64,000 bases of DNA from an uncultured Bdellovibrionales bacterium (GCA_964605525.1 CAZSCV010000001.1:82424-146423), one strand, 5' to 3'; shown: positions 9,069 through 61,169, numbered from the stretch's first letter. Numbers and translations are program-made. Notes: generated by a model not told the origin, from the sequence alone.

Positions 9069-9158
9069 TAAATTTACAATTTTCAATTTACAATTTTTCC
9101 GCCTAAGGCGGACCAGCCTTGGGCTGGCAATCAATTTCCAATGATTTAATTTTCAATT
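9069..9158. repeat. GC-rich paired-hairpin mini-element, long form (copy A)
   Basis: CCGCCtaaGGCGG plus ACCAGCCttgGGCTGG, flanked by AT-rich aatttacaattttcaattt repeats; same element occurs at 12463-12550, 53490-53575 and 53765-53840. Confidence 0.7.
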
Positions 9159-9194
9159 GGGAAATGATTCGGGGTTGTGATTTTATAGAAGTTT

Positions 9195-12462: not shown

Positions 12463-12550
12463 GGTTAATTTTCAATGCTTAATTTTTAATTTTTCCGCCC
12501 AAGGCGGACCAGCCTTGGGCTGGCAAACAATTTACAATGAATAAATTTTT
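12463..12550. repeat. GC-rich paired-hairpin mini-element, long form (copy B)
   Basis: CCGCCcaaGGCGG plus ACCAGCCttgGGCTGG with AT-rich ttcaatg…tttacaatg flanks. Confidence 0.7.
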
Positions 12551-43158: not shown

Positions 43159-43296
43159 ATCATCCACGCTATGCGTGTAATTTCTAATTTTAAATTTCTA
43201 ATTTTTAAACAATTTTCAATTAATTTTAAATTTTAAAAATTTTATAATTTAAGTATTGTTTGAAAATTGATAATTATAAATTGAAAATTAATTCCG

Positions 43297-43368: not shown

Positions 43369-43374
43369 ATCTGT

Positions 43375-43426
43375 GCGTCGTGGGGGAATCCCAGTCTGCT
43401 GGTCCGCCTGTGGTGGAGAACCTTTG
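43375..43426 (-). repeat. duplicated tRNA-Lys 3' half (T-arm plus acceptor) with a paired-hairpin insert in the T-loop
   Basis: Minus strand: AAGGTTC[TCCACCACAGGCGGACCAGCAGACTGG]GATTCCCCCACGACGCACA, identical to the tRNA-Lys 3' end except for the bracketed insert. Confidence 0.6.
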
Positions 43427-43500
43427 TGCGTCGTGGGGGAATCGAACCCTCGACCATTGGCTTAAGAGGCCACTGCTCTACCGACTGAGCTAACGACGCA
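43427..43500 (-). tRNA. tRNA-Lys (anticodon CTT)
   Basis: Acceptor GCGTCGT/ACGACGC; D-arm TAGCTCAGTCGGTAGAGCA; anticodon loop CTCTTAA; T-arm GGTTCGATTCC. Confidence 0.8.
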
Positions 43501-43712
43501 TACTTTCTTTGTGTGTTTTTCGATTATATTTTGCGAGCTGTTCTACCGAGTGCCTGTCCGCCTATGGAGGAAGCTAACGACGCATCCTTTCTTTGTGTGT
43601 TTTTCGATTATATTTTGCGAGCTGTTCTACCGAGTGCCTGTCCGCCTATGGAGGAAGCTAACGACGCATACTTTCTTTGTGTGTTTTTCGATTATTTTTA
43701 GTCCAGTACAAC
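43501..43712. repeat. tandem direct repeat (~90 bp, 2.3 copies), each with a tRNA-Lys 5'-end fragment and a TATAAT box
   Basis: Unit tactttctttgtgtgtttttcgattatattttgcgagctgttctaccgagtgcctgtccgcctatggaggaagctaacgacgca repeated at 43501, 43591 and partially at 43681. Confidence 0.75.
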
Positions 43713-46641: not shown

Positions 46642-49365
46642 TTATATTTTTTCCAGATATTTTTCTAATTCAGAAATTTTTGTTTTTGCCTCAGCTAGTT
46701 TTTTTTGTTCTTGCTTGATGATTTCGGCGGGTGCTTTTTGAACAAAAGTCTTGTTGTTCAATTTGTTTTCCAGTCCGGAGATATATTTTTTCAAATTATC
46801 AATTTCTTTTTGGGTGTTTTCTTTCTCTTTTTTACTGTCAATAAGCCCTTCTAGCGGGATGTAGATATTGATTCCGGCAATAACGGTGTGCGCAGAGTTT
46901 TTAATCTCAGCTCCGTTTTTAGTTATCTTAATGGTGTCAATTCCGGTGCGCAGGCTTTTAATAATGTTCTCTTGAGAGCTAATCAGGGATTCATATTCTG
47001 GATTATTTTTAACATCAAAAATAATGCGGATTTTTTTCATTGGTTCAATTTTGTTTTCACTGCGAAGATTTCGAATAGAGATTATGATTTCTTTGATTAT
47101 GCTGAAGTGTATTTCATCCGCTTGAGAAGCGCTAGTAATCTCCCAATATTTTTCTTTGATTGGAAATTTTTCAATCATAAGCAATTTTTCTTTTCCTAAA
47201 ATACTCCAAATATTTTCCGTGACAAAAGGGGAGTAAGGGTGAAGAATTTTCAAAATATCTTCCAGAAGCATGTTTAAGATGATATTTTTTTCCGTTTTAT
47301 TGTCTTCAAATTTACTTACTTCGACATACCAATCGGCGAAATCATTCCAAACAAATTCTCTTATTTTTTCTATTGCTAAAGAAAAATTATAATTTTCTAT
47401 TTCATTTGTTATTTCTTCAATCAGATTCGACATTTTCTGCAATATCCAAAAGTCCGCCAATGTCAGCTTGTTTTTTTCTAACTGCAATTTTAAGTCGATT
47501 TGTTCCTTGTTCCTTGTTCCTTGCTTCTTGTCGATAATATAGCGGCTGATATTCCAAAGCTTGTTGATGAAATTTCGAGAGCTTTCCACTTTTTCTTCGT
47601 AGAATTTGCTGTCTTGCCCCGGGGTGATTCCTGATATCAAGCTCAGGCGAAGAGCGTCGGTTCCGTATTTTCGGGAAACATCCAGCGGATCGAGATTGTT
47701 TCCGGCGGATTTGGAAAATTTGTTTCCTTTTTCATCGCGAAGCATTCCGTGGATGTAGACATTCCTGAAGGGGATTTCATTCAGGTAATAAGTGCTCATC
47801 AAAATCATCCTTGCCATCCAGAAAAACAAAAGCTCCGAACCCATTTGCATCCAGCTGGTCGGGTGAAATATTTTTCTTTCGTCTTCAGTGAGGGTGGAGA
47901 ATGTCCAAAGACCGCTGGAGAACCAAGTGTCGAGCGTGTCCGGATCTTGTTTTACAGCGCCTCCGCAGAGGGGACATTTTTCCATTTTGGATCCGCTCAC
48001 AAAAGGTTTTTGACAATCCGGATTTTGGCAATACCAAACAGGAATCCTGTGTCCCCACCAAACTTGACGCGAGATGCACCAGTCGCGCAGGTTGTCGATC
48101 CAGTTGAAGTATATTTTTTCAAATCTTTCCGGCGTGATTCTTACTTTTTGATCCGGGTCATTGTTCAGTCCTGTCTCGACGGATTCTTTCATCAATTCCT
48201 TGAGAGTTTTTTCTTTTCCGGGAATTTTCTTGTTGACTGCGACGAACCATTGGGTCATGGGCAAAACTTCGACGATATCTCCGAATCTGTCTGAGGTGCT
48301 GACATTTTGCGTGATTTCTTCCTCTTTTTCCAGCAGGTTGTTTTGTTCGAGGTAGTGCGCGATTTCTTCGCGCGCGGTATCCGTGGAGATTCCGGCATAC
48401 TTTCCTGAATTTTTATTCATCAATCCGTCCTGTCCGATTACCTGGATGAGTTTTATTTCATTCCCTTGCGTTTTTTGTTTTTCCAGCATTTCAAAATCAA
48501 CCATCGAATGGGCGGGAGTAACTCCGACGGCTCCGGTTCCAAAATTTGCGTCAACCGAATCGTCGGCGATTACCTTGATTTTCAAATCGATTCCGCTTCC
48601 GGCAAAATCAGGAACTTCAAATGTTTGCCCGATATATTTTACGTACCTTTCGTCTTTCGGATTGACTGCGATGGCGGTGTCGCCCAGTTTTGTTTCCGGG
48701 CGGGTGGTAGCGATGGCGATCGGGAAGTCTTCGGAATATCTGAAAGTGTATAATTTTCCAATTCTTTCTTTGTATTCAAGTTCGTCGTCCGAGCAGGTGG
48801 ATTGTCCTTTGACCGACCAATTGACCACGCGGTGTCCGCGGTAAATCAGCTCGTCTTTGTACATTTTTTCAAAAACCTCATTGACGATTTTGCTTCGGGT
48901 TTCGTCGAAGGTATATGCCAGGCGCGACCAATCGCAACTGGTTCCCATTTTTCGGATTTGTTTCAGGATAGTGGATTTGGAGTTTTCGGCAAAAGAGCGG
49001 ATTTCTTCCAAAAGTTTTTCTCGGCCCAGTTCTTTTCGCGGGTCTTTGATGCCTTTTTCAATGAGAATTTTTTCCACTTTGGCTTGGGTGGCGACAGCGG
49101 CGTGATCGGTTCCGGGAAGTAGAAGCACTTTTTTCCCTTGCATTCTTTGGTAGCGTGCCATGATGTCCATCAAGGTATTTTCCATCGCGTGTCCCAAATG
49201 CAAAACGCCAGTCACGTTGGGAGGTGGCATCATAATTGAATAAGGCTCTCTGTTTTCAGGATTATCAACCCATGGTTGACCAACCTCTGGCTGGAAAAAA
49301 CCGGATTGCTCCCATTTTCGATATATTTCATCCTCAATTTCCTGAGGATTATATTGTTTTTCCAT
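46642..49365 (-). CDS. valS: valine--tRNA ligase
   Basis: PPNVTGVLHLGHAMEN (HIGH), KFSKSAGN (KMSKS), editing domain, C-terminal coiled coil; 907 aa. Confidence 0.95.
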   Translation of the reverse strand: MEKQYNPQEIEDEIYRKWEQSGFFQPEVGQPWVDNPENREPYSIMMPPPNVTGVLHLGHAMENTLMDIMARYQRMQGKKVLLLPGTDHAAVATQAKVEKILIEKGIKDPRKELGREKLLEEIRSFAENSKSTILKQIRKMGTSCDWSRLAYTFDETRSKIVNEVFEKMYKDELIYRGHRVVNWSVKGQSTCSDDELEYKERIGKLYTFRYSEDFPIAIATTRPETKLGDTAIAVNPKDERYVKYIGQTFEVPDFAGSGIDLKIKVIADDSVDANFGTGAVGVTPAHSMVDFEMLEKQKTQGNEIKLIQVIGQDGLMNKNSGKYAGISTDTAREEIAHYLEQNNLLEKEEEITQNVSTSDRFGDIVEVLPMTQWFVAVNKKIPGKEKTLKELMKESVETGLNNDPDQKVRITPERFEKIYFNWIDNLRDWCISRQVWWGHRIPVWYCQNPDCQKPFVSGSKMEKCPLCGGAVKQDPDTLDTWFSSGLWTFSTLTEDERKIFHPTSWMQMGSELLFFWMARMILMSTYYLNEIPFRNVYIHGMLRDEKGNKFSKSAGNNLDPLDVSRKYGTDALRLSLISGITPGQDSKFYEEKVESSRNFINKLWNISRYIIDKKQGTRNKEQIDLKLQLEKNKLTLADFWILQKMSNLIEEITNEIENYNFSLAIEKIREFVWNDFADWYVEVSKFEDNKTEKNIILNMLLEDILKILHPYSPFVTENIWSILGKEKLLMIEKFPIKEKYWEITSASQADEIHFSIIKEIIISIRNLRSENKIEPMKKIRIIFDVKNNPEYESLISSQENIIKSLRTGIDTIKITKNGAEIKNSAHTVIAGINIYIPLEGLIDSKKEKENTQKEIDNLKKYISGLENKLNNKTFVQKAPAEIIKQEQKKLAEAKTKISELEKYLEKI

Positions 49366-53036: not shown

Positions 53037-54233
53037 TTATCCCAGTTTCAAATTCGCGTTGGCTTCCAGGGTTTTCCAGTTTTGCAGGGCATCGCTTTTT
53101 TCTTTGCTGGTCATTTTTTGCCAGCGGAAAGCGGCGGCGCTGGCGATCATAGCGGCGTTGTCGCCGGTCAAAGCGATATCCGGCAAGCAATAATCAGTGT
53201 GCGGTAAATTTTTTTTAATCGCTTCGCCTAGCTGTTCGCGAAGCTCCTTGTTGGCACTCACACCGCCGGCGAGCATTATGGTTTTGGGTTGGAATTTTTC
53301 GGCGGCCCTCGCGGTTTTGTGGACAAGGACATCAATGGCGGCTTGCTGGAATTCGTGGGCGATTTCAGCTTTTAGTTTTTCTAGCTCGCTTGTTTCTATC
53401 TTTTTGACTTGATATAAAACCGCGGTTTTAAGCCCGGAAAAGGAAAAATTAAAATCTTTGGAATGCATCATTGGGCGGGGAAGATGGATGGAATTTTGAA
53501 TTTTGAATTTTGATTGCCAGCCCAGGGCTGGTCTCGCGCCTGAGGCGGACACGGCGCCTTGGGCGGAGAAATTTGCAGCAGCAGCTGCAATAGCTGGTCC
53601 TCCTGGGTACCCCAAATCCAAAATTCTCGCCACTTTGTCAAAAGCTTCTCCAGCGGCATCATCCAATGTTTGTCCGACGATTTCATACTGCAAATGATCT
53701 TTCATCAAAATCAATTGAGTGTGTCCCCCGGAAACGACTAAGCATAAAATGGGGAATTGTATTTTTGAATTTGAAAATTGTTTGGAAATTGCCAGCCCAA
53801 GGCTGGTCCGCCTTGGGCGGAGAAGTTGGTCATTGGTCATTGAGCTAATTTTATTTTCCGAAATAAAATTTGCGTAGATGTGTCCTTCAATATGATGGAT
53901 TCCAAGAAGCGGCTTTTTCCATTTGTATGCCAGAGTTTTGGCGGTGTTGGTTCCGACAAGTAATGCGGGAATAAGTCCGGGTCCGGCGGTAACAGCAATC
54001 AAATCAATTTTTTCGGGAGTAATTTTGGCAGTTTGCAAAGCCTCAGCAAGGACGGGAATTATATTTTTCAAATGTTCGCGCGCGGCAAGATTTGGTACGA
54101 CGCCTCCCCATTTGGCATGAAGTTTTACTTGGGAGGAAACAATGTTAGCAAGTATATTCAAATTACTGCCGTCAGATTTGAGGATAGCCACGGCAGTTTC
54201 ATCGCAAGATGTTTCAATTGATAAAATATTCAT
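53037..54233 (-). CDS. tsaD: tRNA N6-adenosine threonylcarbamoyltransferase TsaD, with two in-frame repeat-element insertions
   Basis: MNILSIETSCDETAVAI, HHIEGH, VSGGHTQL, GYPGGP, C-terminal GGVSAN…DNAAMIA; 398 aa against ~340 typical. Confidence 0.85.
   Translation of the reverse strand: MNILSIETSCDETAVAILKSDGSNLNILANIVSSQVKLHAKWGGVVPNLAAREHLKNIIPVLAEALQTAKITPEKIDLIAVTAGPGLIPALLVGTNTAKTLAYKWKKPLLGIHHIEGHIYANFISENKISSMTNDQLLRPRRTSLGLAISKQFSNSKIQFPILCLVVSGGHTQLILMKDHLQYEIVGQTLDDAAGEAFDKVARILDLGYPGGPAIAAAAANFSAQGAVSASGARPALGWQSKFKIQNSIHLPRPMMHSKDFNFSFSGLKTAVLYQVKKIETSELEKLKAEIAHEFQQAAIDVLVHKTARAAEKFQPKTIMLAGGVSANKELREQLGEAIKKNLPHTDYCLPDIALTGDNAAMIASAAAFRWQKMTSKEKSDALQNWKTLEANANLKLG
53490..53575. 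repeat. paired-hairpin mini-element inserted in-frame in tsaD (copy D)
   Basis: ttgaattttgattGCCAGCCcagGGCTGGtctcgCGCCtgagGCGGacacGGCGCCttgGGCGGAgaaattt; encodes FSAQGAVSASGARPALGWQSKFKIQN, absent from E. coli TsaD. Confidence 0.75.
53765..53840. repeat. paired-hairpin mini-element inserted in-frame in tsaD (copy E)
   Basis: tttgaatttgaaaattgtttggaaattGCCAGCCcaaGGCTGGTCCGCCttgGGCGGAgaagttgg; encodes ~SSMTNDQLLRPRRTSLGLAISKQFSNSKIQ between the HHxEGH and VSGGHTQL motifs. Confidence 0.75.
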
Positions 54234-54242
54234 ATAATCATT

Positions 54243-54266
54243 TTAGCATAAAACCGCCAGAAGGCG
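54243..54266. terminator. terminator hairpin AACCGCCagaaGGCGGTT plus T-run, terminating the minus-strand tRNA-Glu unit
   Basis: aaAACCGCCagaaGGCGGTTtgtttt. Confidence 0.6.
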
Positions 54267-54276
54267 GTTTGTTTTG

Positions 54277-54330
54277 TAGCGCTACGGAGAATCCCAGCTC
54301 AAAGCTGGTGCGCCCTGGGCGCAGAACTCC
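54277..54330 (-). repeat. duplicated tRNA-Glu 3' half with paired-hairpin insert in the T-loop
   Basis: Minus strand: CGGGAGTTC[TGCGCCCAGGGCGCACCAGCTTTGAGCTGG]GATTCTCCGTAGCGCTACAAAA. Confidence 0.6.
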
Positions 54331-54349
54331 CGTTGCTGTTGTATTTTTG

Positions 54350-54421
54350 TAGCGCTACGGAGAATCGAACTCCGGTTACCAGGATGAAAACCTGGTGTCC
54401 TAACCACTAGACGATAGCGCC
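54350..54421 (-). tRNA. tRNA-Glu (anticodon TTC)
   Basis: D-arm TCGTCTAGTGGTTAGGACA; anticodon stem CCAGG/CCTGG, loop TTTTCAT; T-arm CGGAGTTCGATTCTCCG. Confidence 0.8.
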
Positions 54422-54480
54422 TTGCATATTATGTTTATATCATCAAAAACCTAATTTTTAATAATATTTTTCTTATTTGA

Positions 54481-54574
54481 TAATCTCTCCTTTGAGCATC
54501 GAGGATGCCACTCTGGTGGGTGGTCACCCGTTAGGGTGAAAAACCTGGTGTCCTAACCACTAGACGATAGCGCC
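54481..54574 (-). pseudogene. partial tRNA-Glu copy (5' half, identical up to anticodon-loop position 37) fused to a paired-hairpin element
   Basis: Minus strand: GGCGCTATCGTCTAGTGGTTAGGACACCAGGTTTTCA then CCCTAACGGGTGACCACCCACCAGAGTGG…; no matching 3' half follows. Confidence 0.5.
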
Positions 54575-57828: not shown

Positions 57829-59982
57829 TTACTCCAAATGTACGTTTTTCTTGAATTTTTCCAGTTCTTTTTGGAGGAGTGGATGGTTTTCCAACTTGGG
57901 ATCATTTTTGAGCAGATCGAGCGCTTCTTGGCGGGAAATTTCAATCAGTTTGATGTTTCCCAAGTTTTCCATCGTGATGTCGGGCAATCCCGATTGGCGC
58001 GAGCCCAGAAATTCTCCCGGACCGCGAAGTTTCAGATCCTTTTCTGCGATATCAAACCCGCTGGAATATTTTTCCATAGTTTTTAATCTAGCGTTAGACG
58101 ATGCGCCGAAAAGAAAGCAATATGATTGATATTCGCCACGTCCCACGCGTCCGCGAAATTGGTGAAGCTGAGAAAGTCCGAAACGGTCGGCATCCTCGAT
58201 AATCATAATCGTGGCATTGGAAATATCCACTCCAACTTCGACAACGGAAGTAGAAACCAAAATATCGTATTTTTTATTTTTGAAAGCTTGCATTGTTTCT
58301 TCTTTTTCTTTTGATTTCAATCTTCCGTGGAGCAAGCCCAATTTCAAATCGGGAAATATTTTTTCCGATAATCTTTGGTGTTCGCTCACGGCCGCTTTGA
58401 CTTCGCTCATGGCTTTGGACTGCTCTACGAGAGGCAAAATGACGAAGGCTTGTCGTCCTTGTTGGATTTGATCGCGGACAAAGTCATATATTTTTTTTCT
58501 TTCAATCGCCGGAACGACACGAGTAATGATTTCTTTTCTGTTTTTCGGCATCTCGTCTAAAAGGGAAATATCCAAATTTCCAAAAAGCGCCATAGTTAAT
58601 GTTCGAGGAATAGGCGTGGCGGTCATAGTTAACAGATGGGGTATTTTGTTCTTTACTCCATCAGATATTTCAGTTGTTTGCTGTTGGAGAAAAGCGCGCT
58701 GTCCGACACCGAACCGATGCTGTTCATCGACAATAACCAGTGCCAGTTTTCCAAATTTTACATCTTTTTGAATTAAAGCATGAGTACCTATTACTATACT
58801 CATCTTCATTTCTTTTATAAATCGAAGTAAATCATCGCGCTTTACTTTTGTAGTATTTCTGGAAAAATTTTCAATTTTCAATTTATAATTTTCAAACAAT
58901 TTTAAATTTTTAATGTCTGAATTTTTATTATGCGATATTAGTTGATAAGAGTTTGTTAATAAAGAAATATTTATATTATAATCTTTAAATATTTTGCAAA
59001 AACTTTCAAAGTGTTGGAGGGCGAGAACTTCGGTGGGCGCCATAATGGCGACCTGATGACCGGCGGAGGCAACTTTGAGGGAGGCGATGGCGGCGATGAT
59101 GGTTTTTCCGCTCCCCACATCTCCGTTAAGCAGACGATTCATCGGATGGGATTTTTCCAAATCGGCAAGAATTTTTTCGCTGGCTTTTTGCTGCGTGCCG
59201 GTAAGTTCAAATGGCAGTTCTTTAATGAATTCGCGACTGATGTTTTTTTTAGTTTTGATTGCAATCGCGCTTTCATTTTCCCATTGCGAGCGGATTTGCA
59301 ATGATTTCAATTGTAGGAGAAACATTTCAGAAAAAGCGAATCGTTTTCGAGCGATTTTGAAATGGTTTTCGGTTTTTGGGAAATGGGCAAAAATCAAAGA
59401 TTTTTTCAAGTCGTGCAGATTGAGTTTCTCCACGATTTTTTCAGGAAGTGGATCGTCAATTTCAAAATCATTTTGAAAAATATTTCCGATTTGCCAACGA
59501 ATCCATTTGGAGGTAATGCCTTCTGTTTCCGGATAAATTGGAACTAGCCGTCCGGTATGGGTAGCATCGCGCGAAGAAAATTCCCACGCCGGATTGGATA
59601 TGGACAAATTTTTTTTCCCGAGCATTATTTTTCCGCTTAGGCGTAGCTCCTTGCCTTCTTTCAATGCACTCGCCAAATAGCGCTGATTGAACCATACTGC
59701 CTGAATACTACCGCTGTCATCAGAGATGACCGCTTCAGTAAGTTGCATTTTTCTTTTTGTCCAGCTTCGACGGGCATTGACTGAAATAATTTTTCCAATA
59801 ATAGTGGCTTGTTCTCCAACGATGACTTCGGAAATTGGAACGACCTTGGAATAATCCTCATAGCGAAAAGGCAAATGAAAAACCAAATCTTTCAAAGTAA
59901 AAATGCCCAGTCTGTGAAGCGCTTTGATGTGAGAAACTCGAATCCCGGACATCTCTTCAATTTTTTGTTCCAAATCAACCAT
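57829..59982 (-). CDS. recG: ATP-dependent DNA helicase RecG
   Basis: N-terminal wedge/OB region; GDVGSGKT Walker A; DEQHRFGV; C-terminal helicase motifs; 717 aa. Confidence 0.9.
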   Translation of the reverse strand: MVDLEQKIEEMSGIRVSHIKALHRLGIFTLKDLVFHLPFRYEDYSKVVPISEVIVGEQATIIGKIISVNARRSWTKRKMQLTEAVISDDSGSIQAVWFNQRYLASALKEGKELRLSGKIMLGKKNLSISNPAWEFSSRDATHTGRLVPIYPETEGITSKWIRWQIGNIFQNDFEIDDPLPEKIVEKLNLHDLKKSLIFAHFPKTENHFKIARKRFAFSEMFLLQLKSLQIRSQWENESAIAIKTKKNISREFIKELPFELTGTQQKASEKILADLEKSHPMNRLLNGDVGSGKTIIAAIASLKVASAGHQVAIMAPTEVLALQHFESFCKIFKDYNINISLLTNSYQLISHNKNSDIKNLKLFENYKLKIENFSRNTTKVKRDDLLRFIKEMKMSIVIGTHALIQKDVKFGKLALVIVDEQHRFGVGQRAFLQQQTTEISDGVKNKIPHLLTMTATPIPRTLTMALFGNLDISLLDEMPKNRKEIITRVVPAIERKKIYDFVRDQIQQGRQAFVILPLVEQSKAMSEVKAAVSEHQRLSEKIFPDLKLGLLHGRLKSKEKEETMQAFKNKKYDILVSTSVVEVGVDISNATIMIIEDADRFGLSQLHQFRGRVGRGEYQSYCFLFGASSNARLKTMEKYSSGFDIAEKDLKLRGPGEFLGSRQSGLPDITMENLGNIKLIEISRQEALDLLKNDPKLENHPLLQKELEKFKKNVHLE

Positions 59983-61020: not shown

Positions 61021-61026
61021 TTTGTG

Positions 61027-61080
61027 CGCTTGGCAGGAATCCCAGTCTGCTGGTCGCCCGCTAGGGTGAGAACCTGCTTA
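61027..61080 (-). repeat. duplicated tRNA-Arg 3' half with paired-hairpin insert in the T-loop
   Basis: Minus strand: GCAGGTTC[TCACCCTAGCGGGCGACCAGCAGACTGG]GATTCCTGCCAAGCGCAC, against tRNA GCAGGTTCGATTCCTGCTAAGCGCAC. Confidence 0.6.
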
Positions 61081-61096
61081 CACTTTATCATTTTAG

Positions 61097-61169
61097 TGCG
61101 CTTAGCAGGAATCGAACCTGCGACCTTCTGGACCGCAACCAGACGCTCTATCCACTGAGCTACAAGCGC
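61097..61169 (-). tRNA. tRNA-Arg (anticodon reads GCG)
   Basis: Acceptor GCGCTTG/TAAGCGC; D-arm TAGCTCAGTGGATAGAGCG; anticodon stem TCTGG/CCAGA, loop TTGCGGT. Confidence 0.65.

Follow-up and report, generated by a model that had tools for sequence, protein, structure and literature searches.

This study concerns a 64,000-nucleotide stretch of DNA (the window) from an assembly labelled as an uncultured Bdellovibrionales bacterium (GCA_964605525.1, CAZSCV010000001.1:82424-146423), in which three tRNA genes of the minus strand, tRNA-Lys(CUU), tRNA-Glu(UUC) and tRNA-Arg(GCG), are each followed by a second copy of their own 3' end. In each of these trailers the copied T-loop is interrupted by a GC-rich double hairpin of 27–30 nt (designated X). 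The trailers are probably the ends, miniatures or scars, lacking an open reading frame (ORF), of small mobile elements that occupy tRNA loops and encode only a UPF0213/SLX1-like GIY-YIG nuclease of 80–85 residues. The architecture of the loci, a polarity that always leaves an intact tRNA, the link to the nuclease gene, the formation of tandem arrays, the spread over several phyla, the turnover of the inserts and the import of a foreign tRNA are established, and from the sequences we infer that insertion is driven by the nuclease and guided by homology. An initial annotation of the window had described the three trailers and offered two explanations, a site-specific process that acts on the T-loop and duplicates the 3' end of the tRNA, and a functional tRNA-like trailer. 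The former is supported by 20 loci in several phyla, by the nuclease gene in full-length versions and by the turnover of the inserts; the latter is not supported, for the reasons given below.

Displaced tRNA fragments and hairpins in the window

Ten tRNA genes are called in the window by both ARAGORN and Rfam. A pattern-free blastn comparison of each tRNA with the window returned a second, downstream, same-strand copy of the last 18 bases for tRNA-Lys(CUU) (18/18), tRNA-Glu(UUC) (18/18) and tRNA-Arg(GCG) (17/18), and no 3'-end copy for the remaining tRNAs. The complete arrangement matches three times in the window and not once in 100 dinucleotide-preserving shuffles, and the three trailers are confirmed as real. 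All three loci are given in minus-strand orientation, and each comprises the intact tRNA, a spacer of 4–19 nt, a 5' piece of the T-stem ending in GTTC (designated a'), the insert X, and GATTC with the rest of the tRNA, the copy extending one to five bases beyond the discriminator. X lies exactly between C56 and G57 of the copied T-loop in all three, and the claim of an identical insertion point is therefore upheld. A copy of the T-stem, also claimed, is present in each trailer, but its 5' piece is variable and retains 2, 4 or 5 nt of the stem (GGTTC, GGAGTTC and GCAGGTTC). The spacer between tRNA and a' has 18–19 nt at tRNA-Glu and 18 nt at tRNA-Arg (taaaatgataaagtgtaa), where it includes AATGATAAAG; full-length elements have this string at their right end as well. 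The T-loop TTCGATT is common to the three carriers and occurs also in tRNA-Arg(UCU), which is without a trailer; the six window tRNAs with other T-loops have no trailers by blastn. Because a terminator-like hairpin sits downstream of the displaced Glu copy, it is plausible from the sequence that this trailer is co-transcribed with the tRNA. The Glu and Arg loci, together with the repeat-bearing flank upstream of the Lys locus, recur at 99.98–100% identity in other metagenome assemblies (L109, L110 and L001; two samples; L with a number designates a locus collected in the analysis), and the trailer structures are no assembly artefact. The CCA end of tRNA-Glu is encoded in the related locus L018 (2420–2424) and absent in the window (54349–54352), and in each genome the displaced copy matches the CCA state of the live gene.

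The module X has the form T-C-NNNN-loop-NNNN-G-A followed by CCAGCC-loop-GGCTGG. With a covariance model (R1) built from fifteen 30-nt copies, nine full and two half copies were found in the 64 kb, which have a GC content of 38%. The first stem covaries, with 98% of cells paired and six pairs changed on both sides (equalled in 0 of 500 shuffles), in an alignment that was partly chosen with a pattern fixing the outer and inner pairs. The initial annotation had the insert as a paired GC hairpin. A double hairpin of 27–30 nt is indeed present in all three trailers, but only that of tRNA-Glu is near-perfect (z = -3.4 for the thermodynamic fold against shuffles, similar to the z = -3.8 of the intergenic copy at 9098), and the Lys and Arg inserts (z = -0.1 and -0.5) fold like shuffled sequences. 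The latter two are degenerate, with A.C mismatches and a second stem of 4 bp. In the Glu and Arg copies the T-stem piece is able to close a three-way junction. Mismatches of X on the tRNA strand comprise seven A.C against one T.G in a hand count, a bias that is suggestive of folding on the opposite strand but is not significant.

Beyond what had been annotated, displaced 5' fragments lie upstream of tRNA-Glu (54502–54574) and tRNA-Lys (43537–43583 and 43621–43667), and five copies of X lie at non-tRNA sites. At tRNA-Glu, X separates a displaced 5' half from six bases of the anticodon arm (CATCCT, designated b'), and the 80-nt spacer that follows occupies the place held by the GIY-YIG ORF in L007, L022–L024 and L104. 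This spacer (54422–54501) is identical to L018 2497–2576 at 80 of 80 positions, whereas the rest of L018 is only ~91.5% identical; such conservation suggests selection, perhaps on a promoter, or recent exchange. At tRNA-Lys, each 84-nt tandem unit consists of the upstream leader, positions 1–12 of the tRNA (43572–43583 and 43656–43667), a hairpin TCCTCCATAGGCGGACAGGCAC (43550–43571 and 43634–43655) and a D-arm piece TCGGTAGAaCAGc, and the units are thus displaced 5' fragments with the break in the D arm. A matching D-arm structure is found upstream of tRNA-Lys(UUU) in L003, where three or more tandem 64-nt mini units also stand behind the tRNA. The locus L001 (ENA, European Nucleotide Archive, contig k139_457016, a public assembly of the same population) stops within the 84-nt repeats of tRNA-Lys; structures of this kind break short-read assemblies.

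The non-tRNA copies of X are intergenic or lie within the ORFs of valyl-tRNA synthetase (ValRS) and TsaD, two essential protein genes in which the copies are in frame. The ValRS copy is missing from the L018 orthologue, where the empty site reads CCGGTTTTTTC^AATCCGG. The copies in TsaD sit in AT-rich low-complexity insertions that L018 has without X. AT-rich heptads (AATTTTC / AATTTAC) are over-represented in the window, where 27 matches were counted and 9.5 would be expected. The heptads lie beside X copies, occupy the spacer between tRNA-Arg(UCU) and tRNA-His and occur within ORFs (9071–9096, 9148–9159, 12481–12492, 43186–43289, 53492–53510 and 58866–58909). No terminal inverted repeat and no target-site duplication was apparent beside the X copies that were read. 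X shares with dispersed GC-rich double-hairpin repeats the presence of many copies in AT-rich DNA, some of them intragenic, and compensatory changes in its stems, a resemblance in kind only. The features of the window are collected in the table.

Table. Positions of tRNA genes, displaced fragments and X copies in the window
Feature	Position	Strand	Evidence or remark
Intact tRNA-Lys(CUU), the putatively rebuilt live gene; CCA not encoded	43427–43499	-	ARAGORN, Rfam, blastn
Lys a', GGTTC, copy of T-stem/T-loop positions 52–56, after the 4-nt spacer caaa	43418–43422	-	
Lys X, TCCACCACAGGCGGACCAGCAGACTGG, 27 nt, hairpins TCCACCACAGGCGGA + CCAGCAGACTGG	43391–43417	-	R1, 21 bits
Displaced Lys 3' copy, GATTCCCCCACGACGCAC, 18/18 with tRNA positions 57–74	43373–43390	-	blastn
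Tandem repeat upstream of tRNA-Lys, 84-nt unit, 2.5 copies	43488–43699	-	blastn
Displaced tRNA-Glu 5' half, positions 1–35, 35/35 identical	54540–54574	-	blastn
Glu anticodon-loop X, TCACCCTAACGGGTGA + CCACCCACCAGAGTGG, 32 nt, between positions 35 and 36	54508–54539	-	near-identical to X of ORF-bearing L023, L024
Glu b', CATCCT (54502–54507, positions 36–41), and 80-nt AT-rich spacer, then intact tRNA-Glu	54422–54507	-	
Intact tRNA-Glu(UUC)	54350–54421	-	ARAGORN, Rfam
Glu a', GGAGTTC, four of five T-stem bases + TTC	54324–54330	-	
Glu T-loop X, TGCGCCCAGGGCGCA + CCAGCTTTGAGCTGG, 30 nt	54294–54323	-	R1, 42.8 bits; DNA fold z = -3.4
Displaced Glu 3' end, positions 56–73 + shared CAAAA; GATTCTCCGTAGCGCTAC at 54276–54293, 18/18	54272–54293	-	blastn
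Terminator-like GC hairpin + T run, 3' of the displaced Glu fragment, before the TsaD start at 54233	54251–54270	-	
Intact tRNA-Arg(GCG)	61097–61169	-	ARAGORN, Rfam
Arg a', GCAGGTTC, complete T-stem 5' strand + TTC	61070–61077	-	
Arg X, TCACCCTAGCGGGCGA + CCAGCAGACTGG, 28 nt	61042–61069	-	28/28 with X behind tRNA-Arg(CCU) in L010
Displaced Arg 3' end, GATTCCTGCCAAGCGCAC, 17/18, C for T in the acceptor strand	61024–61041	-	blastn
X, intergenic, between AT-rich heptad repeats (tttt, X, caatc)	9098–9127	+	R1, 49.5 bits; z = -3.8
X, intergenic (tttt, X, caaac)	12494–12523	+	R1, 50.5 bits
X in ValRS ORF, antisense to the gene, in frame (QPEVGQPWVD)	49265–49294	+	R1, 34 bits
X in TsaD ORF, in frame (RPRRTSLGLA), in AT-rich insertion; missing from L018 TsaD	53792–53821	-	R1, 50.5 bits
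Second, degenerate X in TsaD ORF (GARPALGWQ)	53517–53549	-	R1, 24.5 bits

The junction in other genomes and the GIY-YIG nuclease gene

The T-loop junction (GTTC, a double hairpin, and GATTC with the acceptor 3' strand) was searched as an exact pattern over one genome per species and found at 20 loci. The hosts within the Candidate Phyla Radiation (CPR) are Uhr-, Moran-, Falkow- and Magasanikbacteria; the others are four contigs of gammaproteobacterial metagenome-assembled genomes (MAGs), Marivirga tractuosa, two Cytophagales MAGs, one Bacteroidetes MAG and two contigs labelled Bdellovibrionales. Nearly all of these junctions follow a tRNA of the same strand at a distance of 4–330 nt and copy its 3' end; the tRNAs concerned are those for Arg, Lys, Glu, Thr, Trp and Gly. 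The pattern is thus present at further tRNA loci, its absence from which had been raised as a possible refutation. Neither T-loop nor anticodon-loop junctions were found in viral contigs.

Comparison with orthologous tRNA loci in relatives, as had been proposed, found trailers present and inserts differing. The Glu and Arg loci of relatives at 91%, 82% and 73–79% identity have other X sequences and other spacers. Over 6 kb L018 is 91.5% identical to the window and shares its two-sided tRNA-Glu locus, but with another T-loop X and another spacer there, and L012 (82% identity) has a different X behind tRNA-Arg(GCG). This Arg X of L012 differs from the window Lys X by three bases. Orthologous tRNAs with different inserts and non-orthologous ones with identical inserts indicate that X behaves as a mobile sequence. 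In L002, L004, L008, L016 and L019 the displaced fragments have diverged from the tRNA.

Several of these loci have features of their own. L015 (CAZRJL01, labelled Bdellovibrionales) is syntenic at 73–79% identity with the window, which is itself Moranbacteria-like, and L015 is therefore counted as Moranbacteria-like too. L010 belongs to the same MAG and has a tRNA/X region in common with the window; the label of this MAG is probably wrong, or its bin is mixed. In L013 (270–900, around tRNA-Trp) a second type of hairpin (CCCCGCCC...GGGCGGGG) links the left flank of the anticodon loop directly to the right flank of the T-loop, and this junction is repeated twice before an X-type junction follows. 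The displaced tRNA-Glu 3' end of L016 (4300–4345) bears an extra hairpin (TCCGCTAGCTAGCGGA) where part of the T-stem and of the acceptor strand would be, so that several hairpins build up in dead fragments.

A GIY-YIG gene is present in the related full-length units L006, L007, L009, L011, L013, L016, L022–L024 and L104. These units are of two types. (i) In the 3' type (Marivirga L006 and L021; L009, L011 and L016) a unit of 380–383 bp, often in tandem, lies between the tRNA and the X-capped fragment and contains an ORF of 82–84 residues. At the tRNA-Glu of Marivirga the 383-bp unit is repeated at least three times, with one terminator and one ORF of 83 residues, which matches the Pfam GIY-YIG family with E = 1e-16 and has as its nearest solved relatives the UPF0213 proteins BH0048 and EF2693, and SLX1. 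(ii) In the 5' type (L007, L022–L024 and L104) the order is displaced Glu 5' half, X, CATCCT, 9–31 nt, ORF and intact tRNA-Glu. L007 continues beyond the tRNA, its complete order being a degraded Glu 5' half, X, CATCCT, 31 nt, ORF, intact tRNA-Glu, 14 nt, GTTC, X, GATTC to the 3' end, and terminator, that is, the two-sided layout of tRNA-Glu in the window with the ORF still present. In L013, too, the homologue precedes the tRNA. The X of L023 and that at window positions 54508–54539 are almost identical. In L104 (protein P0023; the source record names Parcubacteria, CPR) 9 nt separate CATCCT from the ORF, and the acceptor strands of the displaced half (GGTCCCT) and the live tRNA (GCCGCTA) differ; a foreign copy of the tRNA was therefore imported with the element. 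On either side of the tRNA, the ORF is always within about 45 nt of X. The nuclease family comprises 5969 protein clusters at E <= 1e-8, all of about 80–90 residues, which public records name only "GIY-YIG nuclease family protein" or "putative endonuclease". In the family alignment two Tyr positions, one Arg and one His never vary, and their spacing matches that of I-TevI.

The association was also approached from the nuclease, in 80 metagenome loci with protein homologues that contain 84 copies of the ORF. A tRNA lies within 180 nt of 35 of the 84 copies and is on the same strand in all 35, with the ORF upstream of it in 24 and downstream in 11. Beyond the ORF these loci have hairpin-capped tRNA fragments, and 36 of their tRNAs have partial copies nearby. 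In six further loci (L029, L030, L042, L059, L093 and L096) the ORF is beside same-strand transfer-messenger RNA (tmRNA) genes, which seem, from this placement, also to be targets. Some loci that lack a tRNA, L040 among them, consist of tandem arrays that contain displaced tRNA fragments. The protein family also occurs in another architecture: in L025 (1470–1790) and L043 (1480–1780), likewise without a tRNA, a long inverted repeat set between other genes encloses the ORF in its loop. X itself occurs only with the three closest homologues among the 80 loci; other nuclease lineages are accompanied by other hairpins, mostly closed by TC...GA.

Of the 5' fragments in all loci collected in the analysis, 28 of 29 precede the live tRNA, and 39 of 40 3' fragments follow it; both deviating cases are paralogous tRNAs. 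The T-loop contains 34 of the 40 3' breaks. The breaks of 5' fragments fall either in the D arm or in the anticodon arm, there in the loop or on the 5' side of the stem. A GC hairpin is directly at the break in the cases inspected. The break between positions 35 and 36 of the Glu anticodon loop is shared by the window, L007, L011, L018, L023, L024 and L104.

Proposed mechanism and rival explanations

In the mechanism that we propose, an element entering the loop of a tRNA gene would bring its own copy of the tRNA part that it displaces. An intact tRNA would be rebuilt on one side of the element, and the original fragment would be left on the other side, parted from it by X and a few target bases. 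Two arrangements are seen. (i) In the 3' type the order is tRNA, spacer or ORF, RGTTC, X and GATTC to the 3' end, with the break at 56/57, as at window tRNAs Lys, Glu and Arg(GCG). (ii) In the 5' type it is 5' fragment, X, CATCCT, spacer or ORF and tRNA, with the break of tRNA-Glu at 35/36 and a D-arm variant at tRNA-Lys. The nuclease would break the DNA of the tRNA gene at approximately TTY^SAT(Y)CC, and the break would be repaired by copying the occupied locus, the tRNA sequence serving as homology (homing or gene conversion). ORF-less units would retain the X end and the homology and hence could be spread in trans, and X would land also at look-alike sites such as those in ValRS, TsaD and the AT-rich spacers. 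Insertion into a single live tRNA would be lethal and the survivors would be products with an intact tRNA, which would be the reason why X, among tRNA sequences, is found only in redundant fragments.

The insertion points are GTTC^GATTCC in the T-loop, TTTT^CATCC in the Glu anticodon loop and GTT^CATCT at position 7/8 of tRNA-Glu in Bacteroidota; those outside tRNAs are TTTT^CAATC and CTTC^CAATT, and the empty ValRS site of L018 resembles the anticodon stem-loop of tRNA-Glu. They point to recognition of a sequence of roughly TTY^SAT(Y)CC, possibly aided by hairpin-forming DNA. Because AATGATAAAG and an RAAAG before a' are common to full-length and mini units, derivation of the minis from full-length elements is suggested. 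Tandem arrays are consistent with repeated insertion. X may serve the nuclease as a structural signal, may interrupt the half-site that was displaced or may be carried along selfishly.

Several points weigh against this mechanism and against the nuclease as the source of the window copies. No GIY-YIG homologue was found by tblastn in the 64-kb window, where the copies are therefore classed as ORF-less derivatives and not as autonomous members, and none was found in 8-kb pieces of related Moranbacteria. The 80-nt Glu spacer gives no sign of being a remnant of the ORF, its best local protein score being 27 against a shuffle mean of 28. Mobilization in trans in this genome is an assumption. The insertion motif is drawn from few independent sites, and its T-loop flanks were set by the search pattern. 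A rebuilt tRNA is again a perfect target, and the survival of carriers is not explained by simple homing; nor does the model account for the target bases (a' and b') that separate X from the element, or for what X does. Finally, copies of X far exceed ORFs and occur at non-tRNA sites, and X could be the primary mobile entity with the ORF as a secondary rider.

In its full form this last idea would make the double hairpin an autonomous or host-mobilized palindromic miniature, comparable with repetitive extragenic palindromic (REP) sequences, Rickettsia palindromic elements (RPE) or mitochondrial double-hairpin elements, that enters TTY^SAT-like sites; the tRNA duplications would be rescues by host repair, and the GIY-YIG genes separate homing genes that settle by X. 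The nine full and two half copies of X in a window without the ORF agree with it, as do the intergenic copies, those in TsaD and ValRS with the empty ValRS site of the relative L018, and the constant proximity of the ORF to X whichever side of the tRNA it is on. However, the type of hairpin follows the nuclease lineage, X being restricted to three close homologues in the 80 metagenome loci, the 380-bp single-ORF units form tandem arrays as one piece, and no other candidate for a mobilizing enzyme is evident. We therefore regard an X-driven origin as possible but unlikely. Quite improbable, in our assessment, is a trailer kept by the host as a co-transcribed structured RNA with a role in 3' processing, in stability or as a decoy, the second explanation of the initial annotation. 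The orientation of the tRNA is kept, the Glu copy precedes its terminator, trailers are retained at orthologous loci in several Moranbacteria, hairpin 1 shows strong covariation and a three-way junction can be closed at Glu and Arg. Against these stand the varying length of a' (2–5 stem bases), the degenerate hairpins of two of the three trailers, the exchange of X between orthologous loci, the divergence of displaced fragments in five loci (L002, L004, L008, L016 and L019) and the preponderance of A.C mismatches on the tRNA strand (7 to 1 by hand count); moreover X is present in anticodon-loop and D-arm fragments, in intergenic DNA, in protein ORFs and on the opposite strand, and matches no Rfam family.

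Integrases that target tRNAs classically leave a duplicated tRNA 3' end behind the gene, and the trailers fit this signature. That they are attL/attR-type remnants of the integration and excision of an island or phage at tRNA 3' ends is nevertheless hardly credible: the spacers have merely 4–19 nt, no integrase is near any examined locus, 5' fragments exist upstream, the hairpin module sits exactly at the break, the full-length units of 380 bp hold the GIY-YIG nuclease as their only gene, and viral contigs gave no matches. Other identities were rejected. An archaeal bulge-helix-bulge or group I tRNA intron is contradicted by copies that lack the other tRNA half, by the intact intron-less tRNA beside each and by the lack of an Rfam intron family; Rfam 15, scanned at the gathering threshold over the window and by E-value over six element loci, returned only tRNA. 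A ribozyme was dismissed on the same Rfam result and a negative manual check for a hammerhead core. The sequences after the two 3' copies agree for only 1–5 nt and a' is on the wrong side of X for a simple target-site duplication, and X is not the reverse complement of its own flank, as a palindromic (P-nucleotide-like) addition would be. Carriage by phages was rejected on the absence of junctions from viral contigs. RNase P RNA as a target in L043 (string GGAGGAAAGTCCG) was not confirmed by Rfam and was dropped.

The chances seem to us evenly balanced that the preferred reading, mobile elements with a GIY-YIG nuclease, extends to an unrecognized class of minimal elements. In such a class a nuclease of ~80 residues and its cognate hairpin would colonize tRNA and tmRNA loops across phyla, rebuild the gene with a carried fragment, and survive in the tiny genomes of CPR bacteria chiefly as non-autonomous miniatures that consist of the hairpin alone and enter protein genes, too, in frame. 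If so, thousands of small GIY-YIG genes (the 5969 clusters) would acquire a role, recurrent pseudo-tRNA fragments and assembly breaks beside tRNA genes would be explained, and selfish DNA would be active even in CPR genomes of roughly 1 Mb, in genes for essential RNAs and proteins. A testable question would then be how a nuclease that is only a catalytic domain, with no DNA-binding domain, finds tRNA loops, and whether it reads a sequence motif or the structure of the DNA. Junctions capped by the hairpin would provide a simple survey marker for such elements in any genome.

Comparison with known systems

No description of such elements was found in the searchable literature, with subscription-only papers outside reach, and the window copies appear, on sequence grounds, to be ORF-less members of an undescribed variant of homing-endonuclease elements. 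The Seg proteins of phage T4 are free-standing GIY-YIG homing endonucleases, and SegB is encoded in the T4 tRNA gene cluster (PMC2330249). As with the Seg genes, the nuclease gene here is among or beside tRNA genes, and spread is presumed to start from a break in the recipient's DNA and to co-convert the flanks, an import of foreign flank being seen in L104. Unlike them, the present protein is a catalytic domain of roughly 80 residues with no DNA-binding domain, the element is inside the tRNA gene, which it rebuilds with a carried fragment while a hairpin caps the displaced one, and the elements are chromosomal in several bacterial phyla, with none in viral contigs.

Among mitochondrial endonuclease ORFs, that of Allomyces atp6 reportedly left a truncated duplicate of its host gene. 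Mobile ORFs of this kind have been associated with gene duplications linked to homing endonuclease genes, with truncated host-gene duplicates left behind (PMC6506933). In both systems the unit carries an endonuclease gene and a replacement for part of its target, and the original part stays as a dead fragment; the mitochondrial ORFs differ in being larger, in having organellar protein genes as targets and in the absence of an obligatory junction hairpin. X itself is comparable with the GC-rich double-hairpin elements (DHE) and repetitive hairpin elements (RHE) of mitochondria and the GC clusters of yeast (PMC2800124). Like these it is a short GC-rich module of one or two hairpins that occurs in spacers and genes of an AT-rich genome and has compensatory stem changes, but its host is bacterial and it is tied to tRNA-loop breakpoints and a nuclease gene; the likeness is one of kind. 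Rickettsia palindromic elements and repeats similar to REP sequences or miniature inverted-repeat transposable elements (MITEs) are small palindromic repeats that can sit in frame in protein genes and in RNA genes. In comparison with these, X has only 27–32 nt, a defined insertion motif and a coupling to partial tRNA duplications. With the tRNA elements of tyrosine integrases, the present elements share the restoration of an intact tRNA by element sequence and a displaced 3' end downstream; they differ by having no recombinase, units of tens of bases to 380 bp, 5' versions and a junction hairpin. The elements are set apart from all of the systems compared by the combination of a nuclease that is no more than its domain, targets in the loops of tRNAs and tmRNAs, the rebuilding of an RNA gene and an obligatory hairpin cap.

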